36,302 nt of DNA from a virus, in UHGV virus genome UHGV-0197770. One strand, 5' to 3'. The notes below the pieces were generated by a model that had not been told where the DNA came from, made no database searches, and saw nothing but the letters and a program-made list of their open reading frames with translations. A program made the position numbers and the translations under genes. Every line of letters starts with the position of its first letter. Position 1 is the stretch's first letter. Below, one piece after another: positions 112 through 15,083 of this stretch.

Positions 112-852
112 ATGCGTAAAATCATTCATGTGGATATGGACTGCTTTTTCGCAGCGGTGGAGATGCGCGACAATCCCGCCCTGCGCGATATCCCTATTGC
201 TATTGGCGGCAGCCGCGAACGACGGGGGGTGATCAGCACCGCCAATTATCCCGCGCGTAAATTTGGCGTACGTAGCGCTATGCCGACAGGGATGGCGCTC
301 AAATTATGCCCGCATCTCACCTTGCTTCCAGGGCGCTTTGACGCCTACAAAGAAGCCTCAAATCATATCCGCGAAATTTTCTCGCGCTATACCTCGCGCA
401 TTGAACCGTTATCACTGGATGAAGCCTATCTCGATGTCACCGATAGCGTCCATTGCCACGGTTCTGCGACCCTCATCGCCCAGGAAATCCGCCAGACGAT
501 CTTCAACGAGCTGCAACTGACGGCGTCTGCGGGCGTGGCACCAGTAAAGTTTCTCGCCAAAATCGCCTCCGACATGAATAAACCCAACGGCCAGTTTGTG
601 ATTACGCCGGCAGAAGTTCCGACATTTTTACAAACCTTACCGCTGGCAAAAATTCCCGGCGTCGGCAAAGTCTCGGCGGCAAAACTGGAAGCGATGGGGC
701 TGCGGACCTGCGGTGATGTGCAAAAGTGTGATCTGGTGATGCTGCTTAAACGCTTTGGCAAATTTGGCCGCATTTTGTGGGAGCGTAGTCAGGGCATTGA
801 CGAACGCGACGTTAACAGCGAAAGGTTGCGAAAATCCGTTGATCAGACATGA
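112..852 (+). CDS. dinB: DNA polymerase IV (DinB), 3-prime truncated: about 243 host codons fused to 3 phage-derived codons and a stop
   Basis: Translation [26 protein letters not shown]... matches E. coli DinB (351 aa from memory) up to ...RLRKSV, then diverges (DQT-stop) where phage DNA starts. Confidence 0.9.
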
Positions 853-882
853 GATAAATGAAGGGGGATCCGTGAGATAAAT
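851..882. repeat. Direct repeats GAGATAAAT x2 at the prophage terminus; candidate transposase end-binding sites
   Basis: GAGATAAAT at 851-859 and 874-882 (23-bp spacing) within 45 bp of the host junction; a degenerate AGATAA copy at 945-955. Confidence 0.4.
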
Positions 883-1200
883 AACGAATTGGAGTGGGTT
901 AACATGGGTTCTGGTGAACAGAACTGAAATTCTTTTCCGCTATACGATAGATAAGTCGGGCATTGAAATCATCCTTCCTGGCAACTTAGAATCGAGTTTG
1001 CTGAAACATGACCCGCAACAAAAAGGATGATTCCAATGACTACTCAAAACAATAAGCATGATAGCCTGGATTACTCAGAAAAGCCCAAAAGCAAGCACAT
1101 CGTGACGTTCGAGCGCGATTCCGGTAGAAAAGGAGAATCGTCTTCCTCTGCCAATAAAACCACTATGCCGGCAGCCCCTGCCCCAGGGAAAAAATAAACA

Positions 1201-1833
1201 TCATTCATCGTTCGTTGCACGAACGCGCCTGATCTCCACTCTGGCAATCTGATCTGCTGGAATATAGGTTGCCAGAGCTCCCCAGTACTTATCAACCACG
1301 CCTTTATACTCTTCCCATTCGTTACTGCCTGAAGGGCTGCTGTGCGTGACGTAAAGAACCATATCGCCTTTATTCCCCAGGGTAAACGGACCGTTAGGCC
1401 ACTCTTCAAAGTTCCCTGGCAGCCGTGACATCATACCGGAACCATCGCGAAGAATCACTCTGACCTCGGTAACGCTGAAGCCTGTTTGATCAAACATTGC
1501 CTGCCATGCTGAGCTGGTATCGTCAGACCATGAAACATCATTATTCCACAGTAATCTGTACATCCATTTGCGACCGTACCTGCGCCACCACGCACCGCAT
1601 GTAACGGCACACAGAAGTGCTGGTGGTGTTGCCAGCCAGGCATTCAGACCTGCCCACATAACAGCCTGGTAAGCCATCATTGCTGTCAGGCCAAAAATCA
1701 GCGAAGAAAAAGTCACCTCAATGGGCTTGTGGTGATCCTTCAGTCCCACATTCGCAATAAAATACCCAATATAGCCACTGGTCAGGGTCACCAGTGTTGC
1801 CCATGGCAGATTTAACAACGAAACGTCAAACAT
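1201..1833 (-). CDS. Membrane protein of unknown function (about 3 N-terminal TM helices plus ~130-aa soluble C-terminal domain); terminal accessory gene
   Basis: Start chosen at MFDVSLLNL because GGGAG lies 6 nt upstream; hydrophobic segments LPWATLVTLTSGYIGYFIANVGL and VTFSSLIFGLTAMMAYQAVMWAG; lies downstream of an intrinsic terminator. Confidence 0.6.
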   Translation of the reverse strand: MFDVSLLNLPWATLVTLTSGYIGYFIANVGLKDHHKPIEVTFSSLIFGLTAMMAYQAVMWAGLNAWLATPPALLCAVTCGAWWRRYGRKWMYRLLWNNDVSWSDDTSSAWQAMFDQTGFSVTEVRVILRDGSGMMSRLPGNFEEWPNGPFTLGNKGDMVLYVTHSSPSGSNEWEEYKGVVDKYWGALATYIPADQIARVEIRRVRATNDE

Positions 1834-1871
1834 ATTTTCTCCCTGCATCCTGAATACTAAAGAGAGAGCAT

Positions 1872-1905
1872 AAAAAAAGCACGGTAAGGGGTCTACCGTG
1901 CTTTT
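1872..1905 (-). terminator. Rho-independent terminator ending the leftward early operon (bidirectional hairpin)
   Basis: Stem AGCACGGTA / TACCGTGCT (1878-1886 / 1894-1902), 7-nt loop, flanked by A7 on plus strand (U7 on minus) and TTT on plus. Confidence 0.6.
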
Positions 1906-1947
1906 ATACAATAAGGAGATTTTTGAAAGGACTTTAACAAGCAGGAA

Positions 1948-2346
1948 TTATCTGGATTTGTTAACGTCTTTCGTCTCCTCTGGCAGATCTTCATCAAACA
2001 ACCTGCCCTGCATCCGATCCAGTTCTTCTTTTCTGACCCGCTTAACCACGCTGTAGACCCACTGAAGCGAAACACCAAACTTGCGGGCCAGTTCGTGGTG
2101 GTTGCGTCCGTTAAACTCCCTGAAGATTTCCCGGTCGCGCTGACTGACCTTCCATACCATGCCCATCGGGAAATAAACGTTTTGCCCGCCCCAGACCTGC
2201 ATCATTCGGTTCGCGACGGCCTGACCAATCTGGTCGGCAATTGCGGGCTCAATATCAATAATCTCGCGAACGGTCTCAGAGGTATGCTGTGCCAGCTCCA
2301 CCAGGAGTTCCGGCCCTTTACTTCGAAACTGATTCAGGTCGCTCAT
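1948..2346 (-). CDS. Mor/C-family transcriptional activator of middle/late genes
   Basis: 132 aa with C-terminal HTH ELARKFGVSLQWVYSVVKR typical of Mu Mor/C; last gene of early operon as in Mu; GGGAG RBS. Confidence 0.7.
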   Translation of the reverse strand: MSDLNQFRSKGPELLVELAQHTSETVREIIDIEPAIADQIGQAVANRMMQVWGGQNVYFPMGMVWKVSQRDREIFREFNGRNHHELARKFGVSLQWVYSVVKRVRKEELDRMQGRLFDEDLPEETKDVNKSR

Positions 2347-2767
2347 GTTTTACTCCCGCAGCTCTGTGCTGCCACTTCTTCAGTTTCTCAATAACACTGC
2401 TTGCCTGTTCAGTATTGAGCCAGCGCAGGGCGCTGATGCCCGTTTCCCGCTTGATCCACCGCGCTAATGCATTTTCTGAACGGTCACGAACAATGCCGGC
2501 AGCAGCCATTTCAAGCCATAGCGCACGAATTTTCCTGGACTGCGGATGGTTATCCAGCGGTAAACCGGAGCTGGCTTTTCTGGCTGGTTTAACGCGAAAG
2601 CCTTTCTTTTTCATGGATTCCAGCACGCAGTTTAGTTGTGTGGTATCCATTCCTTTGGTTGAGGCTTTACCGGTCAGCCCCTGTAACATCTGGCGGTAGG
2701 TGTCTTCATCCATACCCAGTTCATTACGGGCAATATGGATAAGCTGTATCAGGCGTTTTTTCTGCAT
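2318..2767 (-). CDS. GemA-like protein (Mu gp16 family, DUF1018)
   Basis: 149 aa; N-terminal RLIQLIHIARNELGMDEDTYRQML resembles Mu GemA; sits immediately upstream of Mor as in Mu; AGGAG RBS. Confidence 0.55.
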   Translation of the reverse strand: MQKKRLIQLIHIARNELGMDEDTYRQMLQGLTGKASTKGMDTTQLNCVLESMKKKGFRVKPARKASSGLPLDNHPQSRKIRALWLEMAAAGIVRDRSENALARWIKRETGISALRWLNTEQASSVIEKLKKWQHRAAGVKHERPESVSK

Positions 2768-2975: not shown

Positions 2976-3195
2976 TCTGAATACCTCCCCATTCGATATG
3001 AATATTACGGGCAGCAATGACAGGGTCGTTATTCCACCATGCACCTGACATGTATTTTTCAACCTGTTCGCGTCCGGCAATAACACCAATTGTGATCCCC
3101 GGCCTGACGTTCTTAAAAAAGGCGCGGGCAAAAAGGTATCTGGCAGATATTCGGCAGGCTTTTAATTTCCGGCTGTTACCTGATAGCGTAATCAT
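2965..3195 (-). CDS. Hypothetical early protein (76 aa)
   Basis: GGAGG 5 nt upstream of ATG; ATGA start/stop overlap with upstream gene indicates translational coupling. Confidence 0.45.
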   Translation of the reverse strand: MITLSGNSRKLKACRISARYLFARAFFKNVRPGITIGVIAGREQVEKYMSGAWWNNDPVIAARNIHIEWGGIQNDY

Positions 3196-3875
3196 CTGGC
3201 CTCCAGTTTCTGTTGTTCCTGCCCACTGACCGGGCGGTGCAGTCTGACGTTCTGCCCTTCACGAAACCCCGCATAGCGCGAGGCGTCGCCATTGCGGCTT
3301 CTTCCCGGTTTACGCGCCCTGGTGGTTTGCGTTTGCGGGTATTTATGTTCCAGCCACTGTTGCATCAGTTCACGCTCATCATCGGTCAGGGCAAAGGACT
3401 GTATTTCACTGATAACGGCCAGTACCCAGCCTTCAGCAAACTGGTCTCCACGGCTGGTACGGGTGGCGTTTTTTATTCTTTTGTTCTGTGCGCTGATATA
3501 CTGCTGACGCGCCTTTTTCAGCTGGCGGACCAGCACTTCCCAGGTGTACGCAGCCAGTGCCGCTCGTTCCCGGTTACCGTAGAACCCCACAGACGGATGC
3601 GTGCCGGGGTGAATGATGGAGTTAACACCAAATGCCTCGCGGATGATGTTCATCAGGCCCAGCATGTAGCGCGGTGGACGGAGACTGCCTGTCGGCCAGT
3701 AATGACTGATGGTTTCATCAATATCACTCATAGCAATGTCGGAATGTGTGATGCCGTGAACATCCATCAGTTTACGGGCTCGGCGCAGTGCCAGAGCGGC
3801 CTCGTGCGGGTTGCCGGATGCGGCCAGCGCCAGCAACTTTTTCAGTTTCTCAATGTGTTTATTCTGGTCTGTCAT
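3192..3875 (-). CDS. Hypothetical early protein, DUF2786-like N-terminus
   Basis: Start chosen at MTDQNKHIEKL (ATGA overlap with upstream stop); motif IEKLKKLLALAASGNPHEAALALRRARKLM resembles DUF2786 phage proteins. Confidence 0.5.
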   Translation of the reverse strand: MTDQNKHIEKLKKLLALAASGNPHEAALALRRARKLMDVHGITHSDIAMSDIDETISHYWPTGSLRPPRYMLGLMNIIREAFGVNSIIHPGTHPSVGFYGNRERAALAAYTWEVLVRQLKKARQQYISAQNKRIKNATRTSRGDQFAEGWVLAVISEIQSFALTDDERELMQQWLEHKYPQTQTTRARKPGRSRNGDASRYAGFREGQNVRLHRPVSGQEQQKLEAR

Positions 3876-4087
3876 TGTTCTGTATCTCCGGTATTTTTCT
3901 GCCGTTTCCATGCCCGGACAGCGTCGGACAGCTCTTTCAGGCTGTATGCTGCTTTAAGCTTTTCCCATAACCACTGTGTTGTTATGTGCATCAGCAGGGC
4001 AGCCAGGGCTGCCCCCGCACTGAGGCATGTCGCCAGGCCAGTAAGAATCAGTGTCCATGCGGTGATTTCCCTGAGTATGTCAGCCAT
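3872..4087 (-). CDS. Small membrane protein (71 aa)
   Basis: GGGAGG RBS; hydrophobic core WTLILTGLATCLSAGAALAALLM. Confidence 0.5.
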   Translation of the reverse strand: MADILREITAWTLILTGLATCLSAGAALAALLMHITTQWLWEKLKAAYSLKELSDAVRAWKRQKNTGDTEQ

Positions 4088-4968: not shown

Positions 4969-5499
4969 TTACTGCACATCCTGCTCAAAAGGAATTATTG
5001 AAAAATCCTCAATGTCGCTTTTAATGGAAATACCGGGAATATTTTTCACGGCCTCTTTTTCATTCAGGATAGCGTCTTTATTTATTTCCTCTTTTACACG
5101 AATAAAGCGCTCAAGCCCCAGACGTCTCAGTAATTCAATAACATTATCCGCCCCACGGATACTGACTGATGGCGGACGGTTTCGCCACTGCACCTCGCCG
5201 GTGGTGAGGTTAGCGAACTTCACCTTCCCGTTGCCGGTCAGTTCATCACGGTGTGCCTCACACCATGTCTGAATACCGGACTGCAGTTCGGCCATGCGTT
5301 TTTTCAGGCTCTCGGTGAGCGGGGCATAACGTGCGGTGATATCGCCAATGGCGTCATTCATTTCTGTTTCAGCCCTGACCAGTTCACGTTGTGCGTCACC
5401 GAGTAGTCTGATTCCCTCAATGACCTCTTCACGTGTCCCCGGCACCCAGAGTGCTGCTGCGGCCTTGATACGTTTTGCACCTTTTGTACTTTTTGCCAT
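4969..5499 (-). CDS. gam: Gam-like host-nuclease inhibitor (Mu Gam / Ku-like family)
   Basis: 176 aa, size and early-region position of Mu Gam; conserved-looking W...GKVKF..GEVQWR core. Confidence 0.55.
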   Translation of the reverse strand: MAKSTKGAKRIKAAAALWVPGTREEVIEGIRLLGDAQRELVRAETEMNDAIGDITARYAPLTESLKKRMAELQSGIQTWCEAHRDELTGNGKVKFANLTTGEVQWRNRPPSVSIRGADNVIELLRRLGLERFIRVKEEINKDAILNEKEAVKNIPGISIKSDIEDFSIIPFEQDVQ

Positions 5500-5798: not shown

Positions 5799-6965
5799 TT
5801 AAACCCCTTTGACAACGTCAGCGTTGACCTGTGGAACCCCGATTTCAGCGGCCAGATTCATGGCGGCTATTACCAGGTTACTGACGGCCAGCGGATACAG
5901 CAGGCTGACCATATTTTTACGATGACTTCCCGGATTGCTCAGGCGGGCACGTATGGCATCCACTGCGCTGGCGTCCATAATGTCCGTCAGTTGTTTACCG
6001 GCCCGTTGCAGTTTGAACGTCAGAAACTCTTCAAGGTTATTGTCCAGAGGCAGAAGTTCGACCACCTCACAGCGCTGAACGACTTCACGGACTTCCATAT
6101 TGCGTTCAGACAGTTTTGTCGCCAGTTCCGGCTGGCCAATCAGCACGATGGACAGCAGTTTTTTGAAACCGGACTCCAGCTCAAAAAAGCGTTTGAGGTG
6201 TTTCAGTGTCGGAATGGGCAGACTGTGGGCCTCCTCAATCACCAGAACGTGGCTGAACCCCGCCTGGCTGCTGTCTTTCAGGACGCGATGCAACTGGCGA
6301 AAGCGGGCGTCCTGACTGCGTCTGATGCTTTCCAGTGGTGCGATGGTACTGATAATGGCTTCGGCAATCGCTGCTGCCTTCAGGGTTTTCCCTTTCACAT
6401 CGTTGTCTTCCATAGCGATGATGTATGGCTCGATAACAATTACCGGCGCATTCTCGCGGTTGATACGTTCAGTCAGGTCGCGGCGCAGCGTGGATTTACC
6501 CGCACCGGACTCACCGATGACGGCCATAAACCCACCATGACGGGCTGTCTGGTACAACGCCTCACGCACGTAGCGAATATCCGGGGTGGTGAACACATCA
6601 TCAGAACCCTGCATGGCTTCGTCGGCGAATGGGTCACGGAAAAGACCAAACGCTTTTTTGGTTGCTGGAAATAACACCTGTTTTTTGAGTAACATATTCT
6701 CTTCCTCACTGAGGCTCGTTTTATCTGTGGTACCCGCTGTACGGGGCGTGGCCGCGCCCTGTACAGCATCAAAACTCTTCGTTGTATCAATCCCCTGACT
6801 TTCCAGCCAGGACGCAAGACGCCGGCGCACTTCTCCGGGGCGGGTGCGGGGCCACGCGTTATGATTCACAATCTGGGCCAGCGTGGCCTCAGAAACATCG
6901 ACAGCTCTCGCCACCACCGCCTGTGAGATACGGGCCTCTTTCAGTTGCTGCTTCAGTACCAGCAT
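5799..6965 (-). CDS. Transposition ATPase (MuB-like, AAA/TniB-type)
   Basis: Walker A GESGAGKST; N-terminal HTH; start at MLVLKQQ chosen because GAGGAGG lies 5 nt upstream; immediately follows transposase. Confidence 0.75.
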   Translation of the reverse strand: MLVLKQQLKEARISQAVVARAVDVSEATLAQIVNHNAWPRTRPGEVRRRLASWLESQGIDTTKSFDAVQGAATPRTAGTTDKTSLSEEENMLLKKQVLFPATKKAFGLFRDPFADEAMQGSDDVFTTPDIRYVREALYQTARHGGFMAVIGESGAGKSTLRRDLTERINRENAPVIVIEPYIIAMEDNDVKGKTLKAAAIAEAIISTIAPLESIRRSQDARFRQLHRVLKDSSQAGFSHVLVIEEAHSLPIPTLKHLKRFFELESGFKKLLSIVLIGQPELATKLSERNMEVREVVQRCEVVELLPLDNNLEEFLTFKLQRAGKQLTDIMDASAVDAIRARLSNPGSHRKNMVSLLYPLAVSNLVIAAMNLAAEIGVPQVNADVVKGV

Positions 6966-6975
6966 GTTTTCCTCC

Positions 6976-8745
6976 TCAGTTGCCGTTAACAATGCTGATA
7001 ACACTGCTGCGTGCCGGCGTGGTCAGCGTGGCCATGACTTCATCCAGTGCAGCTTCCGGTACGCCGTCCGGGTACTGTGCCGTTAACTGGCGGTAATGTT
7101 CCGGCGTCCAGGTAAGGCCGTCGGCGCTGAACTTATCGCGCAGGGCTTTCGCGGCCTCCACATGAGTCATGGGACGTTGTTCAGTGCGCGGCCCGCGTAC
7201 GTCAGAGGCCTGACCGCGCTTCGGCATATAGGCCGGAAGTGTGGCGTCATCAATATGTTTATACGGGTCAAGCCGCCCGCCGAACGGCAGCGCCTTCGCC
7301 TTGCGTGCGGCAGCTGCATCTGCGGCGTTGTCTGTACCGGTGACCAGCTCTTCGGTTTCTTTTGCCGCCATCTGCGCCGGGGTTTCCGGCAGGGCTTTGT
7401 AACTTTCGCCAAATACCGCCGCGCCTTCAGCAAAGCCAAACTCGTTCTTTCTGACCTCTTCGACCAGGAAGAACGTCTCGTGGCCGTCCTCACCGGTCAG
7501 AACCACCTGTGCCACATCGCTGCGCCACGGGTTACGGGTAATCATCAGTTTTTCACCGACCAGTACGCCCGGTACCGTTGATACGTCAAATTCAGTGCCC
7601 CGGAACGAGACACGAAGTTTTGGCGTGACTTTGCGGAGTTCTGGTGCCGCCACAGCCAGTTCACGACATACCTCAACGGAAGGCGCTTTTTTCAGCTGCT
7701 CAGCAGTAATCTTCAGCCAGATATCCGTGCGGGTTTTACCGTGGCGGCTGTGAACAGCCGTGGCGTTAAAGTGGCTGCGCCATTTCGCGGCCAGCGCGTT
7801 GAGTTCTTCCAGACTGTGAACCGGCCGGAACTTCAGACCCGGCTCCAGCTTGCGTTCGATAATGTCCCGCGCCTTTTCCACCTGTCCGGTGGCGCGGGCG
7901 TTATGCGGCTTGTGCGCTATCAGGTCAATGCCCAGTGAGCGGCACATGTTTTTCGTCATACCCGCGGTGTTTGCCGAGCCGGGGTCGAGATAGAGTATTT
8001 TTGGCACGCCGTGCAGCACGTCTGCGCCGCCACGCTCCTGCATGGCGTTGATAAGCACAGAACACAGGTTCTCACCGGATTCCGCACCCGTCACATACTC
8101 AACGTAAATCCAGCCGCTGGCATGGTCGGTAATCTCATAACTCCACACGCGGTCACTGGCGATACGGGCAAGGTTAGCGGGCTTGTTCTTGTAGAATTTC
8201 GCGCTGTCCATCACCTGCAGCCCTTTGTGTCCATTGCTCAGGTAGTAAAGCGTGCAGAGCGAGGCATCAATCTGCCAGACGTGATTGGGATGCAGACTGG
8301 CCACTTCGGTATGCGGCGCAGGGGCATCCAGTTGTTCCGGGTGCAGGCCATAGTTACGCAGGGCACGGCTGATGGCATCTTCGGACAACGGGAAAAACTC
8401 ACCGGTGGTTTCATCTGTTCTGCCTGCGGAGATAAAGCCGTTAGCCCGCAGGGTTTCCACTGCATCTGCGATGGAATAGAGACGCTTACCGTTCTTGCGG
8501 GTGGCCTCACGCAGTGTGGCAGATATCAGCGCGGCTTCGTCGCGGGTCAGGGCGCTGCGCCCGGCATCGGCGCGTTTTTTGCGTTTATCAGTCACAGAGA
8601 CCTCCTTCAGCCTGCGCAGCAGAGTGGCGCGGGACATGCCAAGTTCAGCACAGGCAGCGTCGTATATTGCACCGCGTTTACCATGCCCCGCGTCACGTGC
8701 CGCGCGGGCGACATAAACCAGTCGTTCAGTCAGGGCAGCATTCAT
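6976..8745 (-). CDS. DDE transposase (Mu A-like, integrase-core superfamily)
   Basis: 589 aa; N-terminal HTH (LGMSRATLLRRLKE); integrase-core-like segments HVWQIDAS and LYLDPGSANTAG; paired with B-like ATPase. Confidence 0.75.
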   Translation of the reverse strand: MNAALTERLVYVARAARDAGHGKRGAIYDAACAELGMSRATLLRRLKEVSVTDKRKKRADAGRSALTRDEAALISATLREATRKNGKRLYSIADAVETLRANGFISAGRTDETTGEFFPLSEDAISRALRNYGLHPEQLDAPAPHTEVASLHPNHVWQIDASLCTLYYLSNGHKGLQVMDSAKFYKNKPANLARIASDRVWSYEITDHASGWIYVEYVTGAESGENLCSVLINAMQERGGADVLHGVPKILYLDPGSANTAGMTKNMCRSLGIDLIAHKPHNARATGQVEKARDIIERKLEPGLKFRPVHSLEELNALAAKWRSHFNATAVHSRHGKTRTDIWLKITAEQLKKAPSVEVCRELAVAAPELRKVTPKLRVSFRGTEFDVSTVPGVLVGEKLMITRNPWRSDVAQVVLTGEDGHETFFLVEEVRKNEFGFAEGAAVFGESYKALPETPAQMAAKETEELVTGTDNAADAAAARKAKALPFGGRLDPYKHIDDATLPAYMPKRGQASDVRGPRTEQRPMTHVEAAKALRDKFSADGLTWTPEHYRQLTAQYPDGVPEAALDEVMATLTTPARSSVISIVNGN

Positions 8746-9979: not shown

Positions 9980-10200
9980 GACGCCTCCTTAAGGATACCG
10001 GGGGTAACTTCTTTACCTATTGCAACCGATAGATCTCGCAAAATCCGATAAGTCAAACGACCGCGAGGTAGTTCACTTTTACCAGCCCAGCGACTGACTG
10101 CCTGGGTGACTGTTCGTGGTTCATAGCCCGCGTTAAGCGCGAACTGGCGCAAGCTACTGCCTCGTTCAACCAGCCGTGCCCGAACTTGTTGTTTGTTCAT
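9976..10200 (-). CDS. Ner-like DNA-binding protein (first gene of early operon)
   Basis: 74 aa from ATG (GTG 6 nt upstream also possible); HTH LRQFALNAGYEPRTVTQAVSR resembles the Mu Ner family; divergent from repressor. Confidence 0.55.
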   Translation of the reverse strand: MNKQQVRARLVERGSSLRQFALNAGYEPRTVTQAVSRWAGKSELPRGRLTYRILRDLSVAIGKEVTPGILKEAS

Positions 10201-10288
10201 ATGCACCGTGTTCCTGTTAGGTTATGATGTACTCTATTGGGTCTATTGTACACACCCAAATGAGTGTGTCAAATTGAGATATGTTCAA
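10201..10288. promoter_or_regulatory. Divergent promoter/operator region between early operon and repressor gene
   Basis: Inverted repeats TGTAC-N15-GTACA (10228-10252, containing tandem TCTATTG half-sites) and CACAC-N8-GTGTG (10251-10268). Confidence 0.5.
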
Positions 10289-10696
10289 ATGAGTACAAAA
10301 GAGAGATTGCGTGAAGTGATGGATGCTAATGGCATGACAATAAAGGCATTATCTGACTTATCAAAAATTCCATATCGCTCACTTCAAAACTATTTGCGTG
10401 GAGAGAGAGAACCAAACGCAGAGGCTCTTGTTGCGCTAAGTACCCATTTGGGTGTATCAATCGATTGGCTACTTACCGGTAAAGAACATATTCCATCTAA
10501 AGAAATTGTTGCTGTACCAACACAACATCAATTCAGCCCGTCAGACCTTAAAATGCTTGAACTTCTAAACCAGTTAGATCCTGAGGTTCGGCGAGATCTC
10601 ATGCGAGGCGCTGAAGAAAAACAGCGTGTGATTGAGATGGAAAAACAACTGAAGGAATTATCCGCAACGATTGAGCGGTTAAAAAATGTGGGTTAA
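10289..10696 (+). CDS. XRE-family HTH repressor (phage c-repressor candidate) with C-terminal coiled coil
   Basis: ATG at 10289 preferred over upstream TTG; HTH LSDLSKIPYRSLQNYLRGEREPNAEALVALSTHLGVSIDWLLTGK; divergent from early operon. Confidence 0.65.
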   Translation: MSTKERLREVMDANGMTIKALSDLSKIPYRSLQNYLRGEREPNAEALVALSTHLGVSIDWLLTGKEHIPSKEIVAVPTQHQFSPSDLKMLELLNQLDPEVRRDLMRGAEEKQRVIEMEKQLKELSATIERLKNVG

Positions 10697-10766: not shown

Positions 10767-11774
10767 ATGTCTGAGCAGACCATTGAAGTTAAACACGTTG
10801 TAGTTCACATTTTAGACAAACAACAAAATGGAGACGCTTCTGAGAGATTGAGTCCTGAAGAAGGTCTAGTTACTGAAGCCTCTCAGCGCCTTATAAACGA
10901 TATTTGTGCAAAATATGCAGGACGCACAGGTAAAGGTTATGGCTATTTTGAAGGCGATACGGATAACTATCCTATGGAACGAATGGCTGGGGACTTTCTC
11001 GAAGGTGTTGATGATTTCTACCAAAGTTCCTGCCGAATGATGCATCACCTGACGGAACGTTCTCAGCGAGAAAACATGGCTACTGGTGGTTATGTTCTTT
11101 TTGCAAATATCGTGATAGGACACAATGAACACCTGTTGATAGCTATTGTAAGCGCTACCATTGGGTCCACTGTCACAGATGATTTTAACATCCAAGATAG
11201 TACCTATCTTGATATTGCTAAGCTGCGTATGGCTGGGCGCATTGACTTAACCGCGTGGGAAAGTGGCGCAGAGCGCTATATCAGTTTTCTTAAGGGGCAA
11301 GGTAATGTTTCAAACTATTTTAAACAGTTCCTAGGCTGTAATGATGTCTTAATCGCCAAACGAGAGTCTGAAAAGTTACGTGACGTTTTAAAAGCATTTG
11401 CGGCAGAGAAAGGACTTGACGGCGCTGAAAAAGATGCATTTCTTAAGAGTGCGTTTGAACACTTACATGCACTAAGTAAGGCTGGTGAACCACTTAGTCT
11501 TGAAACCCTTGTTAATGCCATTTGGCCCCAGGCTCCCGAGGAGTTATCTGGTAAACTTGCTGCTGAAGAGTTGGAGTTATCGGATGGCTTCGTTCCTGAT
11601 GGTCGAGTCATTCGGGCTCTGGTATCTTTTAAAGGCAAGTCTAAATATTGGGAACTTAAGTTTGACCGGGAAGGGAAAACTGAAGGCTATATTGATTATG
11701 ATCCGGAAACAAATATTATCACCCTACGTAATGTACCTGAAGAATTTAGGGAAATGTGGATGACTGAGGTTTAA
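10767..11774 (+). CDS. NdpA/YejK-family nucleoid-associated-protein homologue (phage-borne paralogue); candidate sensor of a two-gene defence cassette
   Basis: 335 aa (same length as E. coli YejK); blocks GGYVLFANIV..HLLIAIV, YLDIAKLRMAGRIDLTAWESG..ERYISFLKG...FLG and C-terminal NIITLRNVPEEFRE align to my recollection of YejK; AAGGTGGA RBS; AT-rich. Confidence 0.6.
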   Translation: MSEQTIEVKHVVVHILDKQQNGDASERLSPEEGLVTEASQRLINDICAKYAGRTGKGYGYFEGDTDNYPMERMAGDFLEGVDDFYQSSCRMMHHLTERSQRENMATGGYVLFANIVIGHNEHLLIAIVSATIGSTVTDDFNIQDSTYLDIAKLRMAGRIDLTAWESGAERYISFLKGQGNVSNYFKQFLGCNDVLIAKRESEKLRDVLKAFAAEKGLDGAEKDAFLKSAFEHLHALSKAGEPLSLETLVNAIWPQAPEELSGKLAAEELELSDGFVPDGRVIRALVSFKGKSKYWELKFDREGKTEGYIDYDPETNIITLRNVPEEFREMWMTEV

Positions 11775-11776
11775 TC

Positions 11777-12982
11777 GTGGCGATTTCATTTGAGATGCTG
11801 ACAGCTCTGTATCGTCGTATGGAATTCCAAGAGGGGTTTCGTGTCGGTTCGCTGTTGCTCTTAGATCAGTCCGATTGTGATCTGGTTGATACTTTGCTTG
11901 ATGATCCTCGTGAATATGGTCTTTCTATTGATACAGGCACTATCGCTCCAGGTAACACGATCATCCTACGTGTGACGTCACCACGGAGTGGACTGGGACT
12001 TGTGTTTTCCACCCATGAAAAATTGCTAAATGCTCCAAAGCATCAGTGCCTTGAGCCAGCTAATTACTTCATCCTAGAAACAAAATTTCGTAATGATGAT
12101 GAAGATATCCCCGTTTTCATCAGCAACTACCGGAAGATTCTCGAGTTCGTTAACCTGCTAAAAGAGGCCGCGGCCTACTTTGATAACTCAACTTGTCAGT
12201 TAGTTTTTCTGAAAAAAGAAGTTATCAAGCTATTACCGCACTTCGCTGCAGAAAATGTACAAAATTTGCAAAGGGAGTATCTTGATAACCTTATAGCTTG
12301 TTTCAATGATGATACCCATAAGGATCAGAAGCTAGATATTCTGATTGAAAGTATTCAAGCAGTTAGTGATGGAATTGATTCACCTCTAGTATTCGCTTAT
12401 TTACTGGACAATATTCAGCGTCTGCATGAAAAGTTTCTGAAAGGGTATCGTATCTACTCTTCTGGATTCTCTTATGACAAAGTAATGGATCAACTGCGTG
12501 CTGCAAAAGTCGAAGAAATGGGTAAAATCCACAAAGCGTTTTCAGATATCCAGAACCATATACTTGGCATTCCTGTTGCCTCTGTTATCGTAGCTACCCA
12601 ATTCAAAGTGGCTACGAAATGGTCAGGCCAAGGGATAACAAACACAATAATTCTTCTGGGATGCATTTTTGCTGCAACGTTAATCTGGCTGGCACTTTCG
12701 AACCAGATGCAATCTATAAAGGCCTTAGGCGAAGAAATTGAATACAAAGAAAAACAGATTAATAAGGAATATTCCTTCATTAAAGATGACGTGGCTGGTG
12801 TATTTAGCAGTATTTCTGCGCGACTAGACACGCAGAAACGTACGTTCTGGATTATACGTGGTGTTCTAGTTATGGGAATTATTACCGCTATCACTGTTTA
12901 TTTTTGGTACACAAAACCAGCCCTTGACTTCATGCAGTACTTGATTCACTGCATGAAGTCTTACTATTCGGTCAAAAGTTGA
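11777..12982 (+). CDS. Protein with ~270-aa soluble N-terminal domain and two C-terminal TM helices; candidate membrane effector
   Basis: GTG start 2 nt after upstream stop with GAGG RBS (coupled); hydrophobic helices ITNTIILLGCIFAATLIWLAL and FWIIRGVLVMGIITAITVYFWY; no family recognised. Confidence 0.55.
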   Translation: MAISFEMLTALYRRMEFQEGFRVGSLLLLDQSDCDLVDTLLDDPREYGLSIDTGTIAPGNTIILRVTSPRSGLGLVFSTHEKLLNAPKHQCLEPANYFILETKFRNDDEDIPVFISNYRKILEFVNLLKEAAAYFDNSTCQLVFLKKEVIKLLPHFAAENVQNLQREYLDNLIACFNDDTHKDQKLDILIESIQAVSDGIDSPLVFAYLLDNIQRLHEKFLKGYRIYSSGFSYDKVMDQLRAAKVEEMGKIHKAFSDIQNHILGIPVASVIVATQFKVATKWSGQGITNTIILLGCIFAATLIWLALSNQMQSIKALGEEIEYKEKQINKEYSFIKDDVAGVFSSISARLDTQKRTFWIIRGVLVMGIITAITVYFWYTKPALDFMQYLIHCMKSYYSVKS

Positions 12983-13742
12983 GGATAATGAGTTCCTTCT
13001 TGCGACTGGATTTGCCAGTGATCTTGAGGTTGTAGCTGATATCAACCGACTGAATATTTAGACCGTTGAATGCCTGCCGCATTTCCGGGATATCGTTCAC
13101 CGATATAATCATCTTCCCTTTGATCCTGCGTGCTAAATCTGCCATATGATCATAATTTTCTAGTCCGAACTCCACACCATAACCTTCCGTTCCCCAGTAT
13201 GGAGGGTCACAGTAGAACAACGTATGCGGGCGATCATATCGTTCTATGCACTGTTGCCAGTCCATGTGTTCTATGACCGTTCTGGAAAGCCGCAGGTGTG
13301 CCGCTGACAGTTCTTCTTCAATACGCAGCAGGTTGAAGCGTGGCGGGGATATGGTGGAGGTACCAAAGCTGTGCTCCGCCACCTTGCCCCCAAACGCCTG
13401 CTTCTGAAGGTAGTAGAACCGTGCTGCACGCTGGATATCCGTCAGTGTTTCTTCCGGGGTGATCTGCAGCCATTTGTAGATCTGCCGGCTGACCAGCGCC
13501 CATTTGAACTGGCGTACAAATTCTTCCAGATGATGTTTTACCACCCGATACAGGTTCACCAGCTCACCGTTGATATCATTAATGACTTCGATCTTGCCGG
13601 GTACCTTAAGAAAATAGAGCGCTGCTGCCCCACAAAACGGCTCCACATAACATTCATGCGCCGGAAACAGCGGCAGGATGTGTTTTGCAAGGCGGCGTTT
13701 GCCACCAATCCATGGAACGATGGGTAATGTCTGCATTTTCAT
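12972..13742 (-). CDS. Dam-family N6-adenine DNA methyltransferase (orphan)
   Basis: WIGGKRRL, EPFCGAAALYF and DPPY motifs parallel E. coli Dam; no adjacent restriction endonuclease; 3-prime end overlaps the convergent upstream gene by 11 nt. Confidence 0.8.
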   Translation of the reverse strand: MKMQTLPIVPWIGGKRRLAKHILPLFPAHECYVEPFCGAAALYFLKVPGKIEVINDINGELVNLYRVVKHHLEEFVRQFKWALVSRQIYKWLQITPEETLTDIQRAARFYYLQKQAFGGKVAEHSFGTSTISPPRFNLLRIEEELSAAHLRLSRTVIEHMDWQQCIERYDRPHTLFYCDPPYWGTEGYGVEFGLENYDHMADLARRIKGKMIISVNDIPEMRQAFNGLNIQSVDISYNLKITGKSSRKKELIILNF

Positions 13743-13945: not shown

Positions 13946-13989
13946 CCGCCACATTTGTGATGCTGTCTCCACCAAACGAGGAGACACAC

Positions 13990-14340
13990 ATGAAAAACCT
14001 GAAAAAATTCATTCCCCCTGTTAAAAAACCTCGCCTCAGCGGCTGGCTGCTGACCTCAGTGCTGTTGCTGGGCATCATCGCTCTGGTCTCGCCACAGCAG
14101 TTGCCTGTTGTGATCTACAAGCTGGCACTCATCACGCTGGCAGCAGTGCTGGGGTACTGGCTTGACCGTTCGCTCTTCCCCAAAGCCCGTCCCGGTCAGT
14201 ACCTGAAACATGAAGACAGGCTGATGGCTGAAGGGCGTTTCCCTGTGCAGACCGGCCTTCACCTTGTATTTTCTGCTGCGTTAATCCGCCGTGCACTGAT
14301 TGTTGCAGCTGTCTGTCTGGCTGTTGCGATGGGGCTTTAA
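13990..14340 (+). CDS. Membrane protein, 3 predicted TM helices; holin candidate
   Basis: Start at MKNLKKF with GAGGAG 6 nt upstream; first gene of lysis cassette directly before endolysin. Confidence 0.45.
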   Translation: MKNLKKFIPPVKKPRLSGWLLTSVLLLGIIALVSPQQLPVVIYKLALITLAAVLGYWLDRSLFPKARPGQYLKHEDRLMAEGRFPVQTGLHLVFSAALIRRALIVAAVCLAVAMGL

Positions 14341-14342
14341 TC

Positions 14343-15083
14343 ATGAACTGGCCGCAGATCACCTGGATTGTATGCATGTCCCTGAAACTGGCTTTCGAAG
14401 CCTTTCGGGTCTTCATCAGAACCGAACGCCTGTCAGTCCGCGCCGGGACCTTTCTGGTTCATATGGCATGGGTATTCTTTGTCGCAATGTTGCTCTGGTG
14501 TGGCGGCTTTTTCAGCCAGGCATGCGCAGCGCAGCCTCCGCAGGTTGCGCTGCAGTATCGCGATGATGTGATCCGTAATGCCCGGCTTGAATGGGGACTG
14601 TCTGCGCCGGTGGCCGACTTCGCCGCGCAGCTGCATCAGGAAAGCGGCTGGCGACCTGATGCGGTCTCGCCGGCTGGCGCTCAGGGACTGGCGCAGTTTA
14701 TGCCCACCACCGCTGACTGGATAAGTCAGCTGATGCCGGGGCTTAACAGCCGTGAACCGTTTAATCCGGCGTGGGCCATCCGGGCGCTGGTCAGCTATGA
14801 CCGCTGGCTGTGGCAACGCGTCAGCGCCGCCAGTGACTGCGAGCGTATGGCCATGACGCTGTCAGGCTATAACGGTGGTCTGGGCTGGGTACAGCGGGAC
14901 AAACGGCTGGCCTCGCAGCAGGGGCTGGACAGCACCCGCTGGTTCGGACATGTCGCCACGGTGAATGCCGGACGCAATGCGGCCAGCTGGCGGGAGAACC
15001 GCCATTATCCGCAGCGCATCCTGCGCGAACTGGCACCGCGATATCTCACATGGGGAGGCAGCAGTTGTGTGGCATCTGGTTAA
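14343..15083 (+). CDS. Endolysin, SLT-domain lytic transglycosylase with N-terminal signal/SAR-like hydrophobic segment
   Basis: ESGWRPDAVSPAGAQGLAQFMPTTA and GYNGG motifs of the SLT family; hydrophobic MAWVFFVAMLLWCGGFF near N-terminus (alternative start at 14463). Confidence 0.7.
   Translation: MNWPQITWIVCMSLKLAFEAFRVFIRTERLSVRAGTFLVHMAWVFFVAMLLWCGGFFSQACAAQPPQVALQYRDDVIRNARLEWGLSAPVADFAAQLHQESGWRPDAVSPAGAQGLAQFMPTTADWISQLMPGLNSREPFNPAWAIRALVSYDRWLWQRVSAASDCERMAMTLSGYNGGLGWVQRDKRLASQQGLDSTRWFGHVATVNAGRNAASWRENRHYPQRILRELAPRYLTWGGSSCVASG

Follow-up and report, generated by a model that had tools for sequence, protein, structure and literature searches.

Gene content and position of the cassette

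The stretch of DNA analyzed here, virus genome UHGV-0197770 (36,302 nucleotides in total, hereafter the window), contains a prophage whose left end carries two convergent genes. The larger gene, on the minus strand (1201..1833, ATG at 1833), encodes an inner-membrane protein of 210 amino acids (aa), and the same open reading frame (ORF) is annotated in RefSeq for identical prophages (WP_000460690.1). The smaller gene, on the plus strand (1036..1197), encodes a partner protein of 53 aa (WP_001571575.1). Their stop codons are only 3 bp apart. It is well supported that bases 880–1990 form a self-contained, mobile, optional, and selected two-gene cassette, i.e., a moron, which we tentatively read as a unit acting in conflicts between phages at the inner membrane.

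An original prediction, made from the DNA letters, had described the large gene as encoding 211 aa and as the last gene before the prophage end; the ORF is real, but according to the RefSeq annotation this count is one too high, and it is the small gene that physically lies last. The convergent ORF of 56 codons (1027..1197) noted at the same time proved to be a real, conserved gene, although its RefSeq start is at 1036 rather than 1027. The ribosome-binding site proposed for the membrane-protein gene, GGGAG, was found where expected (1839..1843, minus strand, read from the sequence), 5 nt upstream of the ATG.

The deposited phage nearest to the window prophage is PhiKM, which is classified as Bcepmuvirus; therefore, the window prophage is regarded as BcepMu-like, with an early operon running towards its left end. 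The last core gene of this operon encodes a Mor-family late activator (1948..2346, minus strand; Pfam Mor, E = 1e-43). On the other side of the cassette, the host gene before the prophage is dinB, whose 5' ~243–244 codons occupy 112..839 (NCBIfam DNA polymerase IV, E = 1.6e-132). Base 840 is the prophage end, and the sequence from TGATCAGACATGAGATAAATG onward is common to four independent insertions in Escherichia coli, located in dinB, a flagellin gene, fadM, and kefF. The fact that an identical TGATCAGACATGAGATAAATG starts right after unrelated host genes both fixes the end at 840 and indicates random, transposition-type insertion. This end (840..885), which begins with TG, holds two direct GAGATAAAT repeats, presumably bound by the transposase, with the cassette situated just inside.

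Presence and absence among related prophages

The whole 840–2400 segment is present in 115 complete E. coli genomes, while about 500 E. coli genomes match only from base 1988 on, inside the 3' end of Mor (the Mor/gp16 part). Of 5426 complete E. coli genomes, a sensitive search found 132 with the large gene and 124 with the small one, in every case on the chromosome. In the relatives without the cassette (e.g., L008), Mor is the last gene and the prophage end lies ~160 bp past it, with a homologous terminal 40 bp; the first ~40 bp of the end are ~82% conserved in these relatives, their Mor and gp16 proteins are 92–98% identical, and their Gam is 98% identical. Because such prophages end 160 bp after Mor, a segment of ~1.1 kb (roughly 880–1988) behaves as an indel, and the 3' end of Mor (~1948..1988) is part of the variable segment. 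These ~500 relatives, the low frequency in complete genomes, and the occurrences in unrelated phages described below support the original proposal that the large gene is accessory.

The large gene is missing from the PhiKM record, too. The DNA that follows Mor in PhiKM was considered as an alternative cargo and rejected, as it is host DNA beyond the same prophage end. GC content was also discarded as a signal of foreign origin, the difference between the cassette (44–51%) and the nearby DNA (52–55%) being too small.

Besides presence and absence, the cassette shows allelic variation. In four viral contigs (L047, L050, L051, and L061), the transposase, B-like ATPase, and Gam are 97–99% identical, whereas the large-gene allele is just 68–72% identical; alleles this different on near-identical backbones indicate that the cassette has been exchanged. 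The ratio of nonsynonymous to synonymous substitution rates (dN/dS) is 0.1–0.2 for the large gene, and in the comparison with an allele of 87% DNA identity it is 0.11 for the large and the small gene alike. Both cassette genes are thus under purifying selection.

The early operon is closed off by an intrinsic terminator (1868..1905, minus strand) directly upstream of the cassette, between the Mor stop codon and the next gene. Its hairpin (1875..1905), AAAAGCACGGTAG-ACCCC-TTACCGTGCTTTT followed by a T-run, has a fold energy of -19.1 kcal/mol (z = -6.5 against shuffled sequences), in agreement with the strong terminator that the original prediction had placed after the Mor-like gene. By eye, a hairpin with a T-run was recognized between Mor and the large gene in all ten enterobacterial BcepMu-like loci inspected, with differing sequences.

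All retrieved enterobacterial homologues with an assignable BcepMu-like backbone sit directly after Mor at the prophage end, in Citrobacter, Serratia, Salmonella (diarizonae), Symbiopectobacterium, Pantoea, Arsenophonus, and Phlomobacter. This constant position would be expected if the large gene were a conserved but dispensable BcepMu-like early gene, expressed by read-through of the terminator and aiding the phage's own development, for example, through membrane anchoring, sibling exclusion in lytic growth, or lysis timing. The identity of the large gene among these prophages (35–68%), which is similar to that of the core (transposase, 45–58%; B-like ATPase, 57–62%), and its invariable co-orientation with the adjoining operon are in line with such a role. 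However, about 80% of the E. coli relatives lack the gene and are still widespread and apparently intact at that end, the gene also occurs inside head or tail operons of non-Mu phages and in non-phage islands, and a conserved terminator stands in front of it; we therefore consider this explanation improbable. The original prediction had itself named a conserved early-operon gene of Mu-like phages as the finding that would speak against it. The position is indeed conserved, but the gene is no member of the core early operon, as most E. coli members are without it and a positionally conserved terminator separates it from the operon. The constant place after Mor, the terminator, and the absences in E. 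coli together indicate a module that is old and recurrent, yet dispensable and transcriptionally set apart. It is not a recent one-off pickup.

A Serratia BcepMu-like prophage (L012) has an extra gene of 95 aa (7690..7977, plus strand) between Mor and the membrane-protein gene. A match of its product to the Pfam family Tad5, an inhibitor of Thoeris, is at chance level (E = 0.048) and probably noise.

Spread beyond Mu-like phages

The contexts outside Mu-like phages were provided by more distant homologues (37–47% identical). In an HK97-like phage (L032), the gene pair lies between the head–tail connector and head-closure genes, and the small ORF is also present at L066. The cassette follows capsid and cement genes at L067, it is placed between minor-tail (tape-measure-type) and tail-tip genes at L069, with a similar ORF layout among unannotated neighbours at L070, and it comes after terminase, portal, and Mu-F-like genes at L071. 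In an enterobacterial-like contig (L062), the large gene follows terminase and portal genes. Other loci show a gene that, by its N-terminal sequence, reads like a serine recombinase directly upstream (two Afipia loci), an HTH_7 fragment directly upstream (a Bradyrhizobium locus), or a DUF4411/peptidase-M78 pair beside the large gene (Allosphingosinicella). The large gene points the same way as its flanking operon in every phage context examined. The small tail-to-tail ORF accompanies it at most loci; the two genes move together as one unit.

These results agree with what is known of morons: the cassette is present or absent between close relatives, and it is found in unrelated backbones at different positions. 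Of the promoter and terminator that let a moron be expressed from a repressed prophage, a conserved sigma-70 promoter is present at the small gene; the large gene has an upstream terminator and no promoter with at least 9 of 12 consensus matches. Clustering at 50% identity divides the compact family into 522 representative clusters, almost all with a length of ~200 aa; among its longer members no informative fusions were found, the extensions being of low complexity or the result of mis-called starts.

In the GenBank phage collection, the sole homologue is encoded by Synechococcus phage Ssp-JY41 (L001; PP438431.1, 8001..8636; 29% identity). The gene for it comes first, right at the end of a 20-kb record that also encodes a primase and a helix-turn-helix regulator.

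The membrane protein

Hydropathy and an AlphaFold2 model (mean pLDDT 83.7) bear out the original proposal of about three N-terminal transmembrane (TM) helices and a soluble C-terminal domain, with helices at residues 11–27, 37–60, and 65–97 followed by a beta-rich domain at 119–205. Five lysine or arginine residues lie in residues 84–100, after helix 3, and none in the N-terminus or loop 2; loop 1 (KDHHK) has a weaker positive cluster, with two lysines against two acidic residues. From this charge distribution, the N-terminus is predicted to be periplasmic and the C-terminal domain cytoplasmic (N-out/C-in).

The C-terminal domain has an Sm/LSm-like fold, namely, an N-terminal helix and a bent, five-stranded beta-sheet barrel, and PDB entry 6f9w is among its fold matches. 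Short peptides are known ligands of LSm domains. Compared with proteins of the Sm/LSm fold, the window domain is just 10–16% identical, has no match at the sequence level, is tethered to a membrane, and carries a 20-residue insertion (167–188).

Conservation is unevenly distributed along the protein. The N-terminus with TM1 (mean conservation 0.84) and cytoplasmic loop 1 (0.76) are the most conserved parts, and periplasmic loop 2, which contains indels, is the most variable region (0.37). Eight or nine polar residues are invariant in the alignment, including H35, S101, D104, D157, Y161, T163, and R202. They suggest a putative ligand-binding or catalytic site near the interface of membrane and cytoplasm.

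Three helices with N-out/C-in topology followed by an Sm-like beta domain mirror the N-terminal two-thirds of MscS, in which TM helices precede an Sm-like cytoplasmic ring domain. One could thus imagine a lysogenic conversion function unrelated to phages, in which a small oligomeric channel or sensor alters the ion, osmotic, or envelope physiology of the host. Membership in the MscS family was rejected by hhalign and by the absence of MscS among the fold matches, and we regard such a channel or sensor as very improbable. A lysis holin was also considered, as Foldseek matched the TM part to three-helix holins, if weakly and generically; this candidate was set aside because the prophage has separate Holin_2-3 and SLT endolysin genes at 13957..15083.

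Profile searches placed both proteins in families of unknown function. The large protein has a full-length match to PHROG 12870 (E = 7.8e-134; residues 2–211 of the 211-residue translation against positions 1–210 of 210 in the profile), and the small protein matches phrog_15726 (E = 1e-41). Scans of both proteins against Pfam, NCBIfam, and PADLOC gave no significant match (for the window membrane protein, no Pfam family at E <= 0.1), and a profile search against PDB sequences returned chance-level matches only (E >= 0.5).

A distant relationship, at most, is suggested by sequence to the Pfam family DUF6338 (PF19865). It resembles the window family in the length of its members (~170–215 aa); 16 of 33 homologues match it at E <= 0.01, the relatives align to profile positions ~54–144 of 205, from TM2 to the early beta part, with E-values around 1e-5, and NCBI names one of them a "DUF6338 family protein". 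On the other hand, the window protein itself has no match at E <= 0.1, its relatives cover under half of the model, and the four homologues whose scores were read reach 23.9–25.9 bits against a gathering cut-off of 26.5 bits. Membership in DUF6338 would add nothing on mechanism, as this family is without known function. In the literature, we found DUF6338 named in one unrelated proteomics paper and no paper on the window protein family.

The small gene and its control elements

The small protein is hydrophilic and disordered, with a C-terminus rich in proline and lysine (…PAAPAPGKK). A hydrophilic ORF of 44–66 aa was found tail to tail with the large gene, at a distance of 0–30 bp, at most loci examined in Gamma- and Alphaproteobacteria; in one survey, 14 of 20 loci had it, and it was also seen in further viral contigs. 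The small ORF is an obligate, conserved partner gene at most loci examined. No partner-like ORF was recognized at L062 or at L018, L019, and L027, the last three being reduced symbiont genomes that keep the large gene. The small ORFs of Alphaproteobacteria and of the HK97-like phage share recurring [NS][YFH]xPxT motifs and a C-terminus of the PPxPKK type, and those of Enterobacterales follow a D[YF]SE.PK…P.P.KK pattern.

At four Bradyrhizobiaceae loci (L009, 8802..9272, minus strand; L021; L024; and L026), a third ORF lies ahead of the small gene in the same orientation. It is 83–174 aa long as called, with a conserved C-terminus (…FDPIFTFPFQPRN), and the L009 copy has no Pfam match. The alphaproteobacterial version of the cassette may have three genes.

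Upstream of the small gene in the window, a sigma-70 promoter-like site, TTGAAA-N18-TAGAAT (963..992, plus strand), matches the consensus at 10 of 12 positions. The same TTGAAA and TAGAAT elements, spaced by 17–18 nt, are kept upstream of the small ORF at diverged Serratia, Citrobacter, Symbiopectobacterium, and Salmonella loci. A pattern scan detected a terminator-like hairpin (907..935, plus strand) between the prophage end and this promoter, which may stop transcription reading in from the host.

An inverted repeat connects the promoter with the start of the small gene. Its left arm (961..977, plus strand) overlaps the -35 element and pairs with the right arm (1022..1038, plus strand), which covers the ribosome-binding site (AAGGA) and the ATG. 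Over eight diverged loci, 88% of the cells of its 15 pairs are paired and five pairs show compensatory changes, a covariation that exceeds both shuffled and slid controls. The left arm precedes the expected transcription start, so that the occluding hairpin could form only in transcripts reading in from outside. The fold-back would then silence translation of the small gene from transcripts entering from host DNA, following the logic of IS10; alternatively, the inverted repeat may be an operator acting at the DNA level. An Rfam scan of 700..2400 returned nothing meaningful.

There is no terminator between the two genes, so the small-gene transcript should run antisense over the large gene up to the 1875..1905 hairpin. 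As the genes are tail to tail, the same must hold in the other direction, each transcript running antisense into the other gene. This arrangement, which is kept over very distant loci with a gap of 0–30 bp, recalls a toxin–antitoxin-like addiction switch, in which a growth-arresting or pore-forming membrane toxin would be neutralized in the lysogen by the small protein or by a ~0.9-kb antisense transcript, thereby stabilizing the prophage or timing lytic membrane damage instead of acting against other phages. Several features agree with such a switch: the strong, conserved promoter of constitutive type in front of the small gene, the covarying fold-back that guards it from read-in translation as for a dosage-critical regulator, the position of the large gene behind a terminator and without a clear promoter, and the faint likeness of its TM part to three-helix holins. 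However, the known type I toxins are shorter peptides (<60 aa), the known pairs of type II form operons read in one direction, and the small ORF is conserved as a protein, as its dN/dS indicates, and not only as an RNA. Moreover, most related prophages have lost the cassette with no sign of addiction, and the large gene persists without a recognizable small ORF in the three symbiont genomes. We consider the addiction switch possible, though unlikely.

Interpretation

The reading that we prefer, with a probability of roughly 0.4, is that the mobile cassette acts in phage–phage conflict at the inner membrane, by superinfection exclusion or abortive infection, under the control of the small gene. 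This reading is based on the distribution among temperate phages, the presence/absence and allelic polymorphism, the variable periplasmic loop, and an architecture analogous to that of the exclusion protein SieA. Superinfection exclusion or another lysogenic-conversion function had already been suggested in the original prediction, as a guess that is plausible at most. The membrane protein would block the entry of DNA from a superinfecting phage, or it would kill or depolarize the infected cell. The small gene might control it through its protein, which would bind the beta-barrel by means of its short linear motifs, or through antisense, convergent transcription across the large gene.

Several observations weigh against phage–phage conflict. 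A promoter scan with a threshold of 9/12 found no convincing sigma-70 promoter between the terminator and the large gene; the best candidate by eye is an 8/12 match inside the terminator hairpin, and expression of the large gene in the lysogen can hence be presumed at most. The co-orientation of the large gene with its flanking operons fits lytic-phase expression as well as lysogenic expression. The invariant polar residues suggest a site that a simple "plug" model leaves unexplained. In PADLOC-DB v2, the one defense-system library searched, neither protein matches a family at E <= 1, and the GenBank phage collection gives just the one distant match in Ssp-JY41. Homology to P22 SieA was rejected, with an hhalign probability of 0.15%, and the FxRYPxEAxxFNK motif is absent from the alignment; altogether, no experimental or homology-based link to any characterized exclusion or defense protein was found. 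The membrane nuclease SNIPE (PMC13190303) was also set aside on the basis of its published description, without sequence comparison.

A more specific proposal can be built on phage–phage conflict. The pair would be a previously unrecognized, widespread, phage-borne two-component exclusion or abortive-infection system, in which an Sm-like ring acts as the effector and a docked small protein, by its [NS][YFH]xPxT motifs and PPxPKK tail, restrains or activates this ring, with opposed convergent transcription and an IS10-style insulation of the small gene. We advance this detailed version with considerable doubt.

Other features of the prophage

The remaining genes of the leftward operon encode a transposase with an rve domain (6976..8745), an ExeA/AAA_22-like B protein (5799..7004), Gam (4969..5499, matched to annotated Gam genes), a DUF2786/DUF7168 protein (3192..3911), and GemA (2318..2767). 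A CI-like repressor gene (10193..10696) is directed rightward, and holin, SLT transglycosylase, and virion genes are located further on. The genome ends of Burkholderia BcepMu-like phages hold lineage-specific sequences (PMC2920897), in support of an accessory nature of the large gene.

Directly downstream of the repressor gene, the 10767..12982 region (plus strand) encodes a YejK/NA37-type nucleoid-associated protein (335 aa) and a protein of 401 aa. They have weak NCBIfam matches to DS1_1_antiphage and DS1_2_antiphage (64 and 76 bits, against cut-offs of 330 and 315), and the 401-aa protein also weakly matches PADLOC KwaA (E = 8e-5). Judged by these similarities, the repressor operon may carry a pair distantly related to a two-gene anti-phage system. 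Between this repressor-side cargo and the holin lies a gene for a D12-class (Dam-like) adenine methyltransferase (12972..13742, minus strand), which is opposite to its neighbours; no partner nuclease was noticed nearby.

At the host junction, dinB is interrupted after codon ~243, and the strain should therefore be without functional Pol IV unless a second copy is present. A 145-bp piece of the prophage end (window 849..993; L074 3501..3644; ~90% identical) was also found without the rest of the phage, on chromosomes as well as on large E. coli plasmids; the 840–2400 query matched 106 places on plasmids. The one such piece inspected is unannotated and adjoins remnants of IS3 and IS1. It has the appearance of an orphaned end from a related transposable phage.

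Significance and comparison with known systems

A large share of the bacterial genes for anti-phage defense and lysogenic conversion that are still unknown is carried by temperate phages. The cassette described here is only ~1 kb long and has spread over both Gamma- and Alphaproteobacteria in no fewer than four phage architectures; E. coli prophages that are otherwise identical, clinical lineages included, differ in it. Its compactness, selection, spread, and polymorphism, together with the lack of a PADLOC-DB v2 match, are typical of an undiscovered exclusion or defense system. If the module were a mere phage-internal helper, the interest would be modest. Whatever the phenotype, a membrane-tethered Sm-like domain with a convergent small partner and fold-back protection is an unusual design and of mechanistic interest.

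The fold-back element can be compared with that of IS10/Tn10, where fold-back inhibition blocks translation of the transposase from read-in transcripts. In both cases, one arm precedes the start of the element's own transcript and the other covers the ribosome-binding site and ATG, and the window element likewise inserts at random sites next to host promoters. In contrast, the gene protected here encodes a 53-aa protein rather than a transposase, and the support for the structure is covariation.

SieA of phage P22 has a demonstrated role in superinfection exclusion and is expressed from its own promoter outside the main operons; it occurs in several sequence types, <30% identical, that are exchanged among related phages (PMC10883804). 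The window protein resembles SieA in being prophage-borne and non-essential, in its size (~160–210 aa), in its three predicted inner-membrane TM helices, and in its conserved cytoplasmic C-terminal region. However, SieA is without an Sm-like domain and without a convergent small partner, and exclusion is only presumed for the window protein.

The family is uncharacterized, and the known kind to which it belongs is the phage moron encoding a membrane protein. Compared with morons such as HK97 gp15 (PMC3594210), the window cassette differs in being a convergent unit of two genes and in that its large gene has no identified promoter. It shares with them the character of an extra transcription unit that encodes a membrane protein, is present or absent between near-identical phages, is bounded by a terminator, and is inserted between core genes, including those of head and tail operons in unrelated phages.

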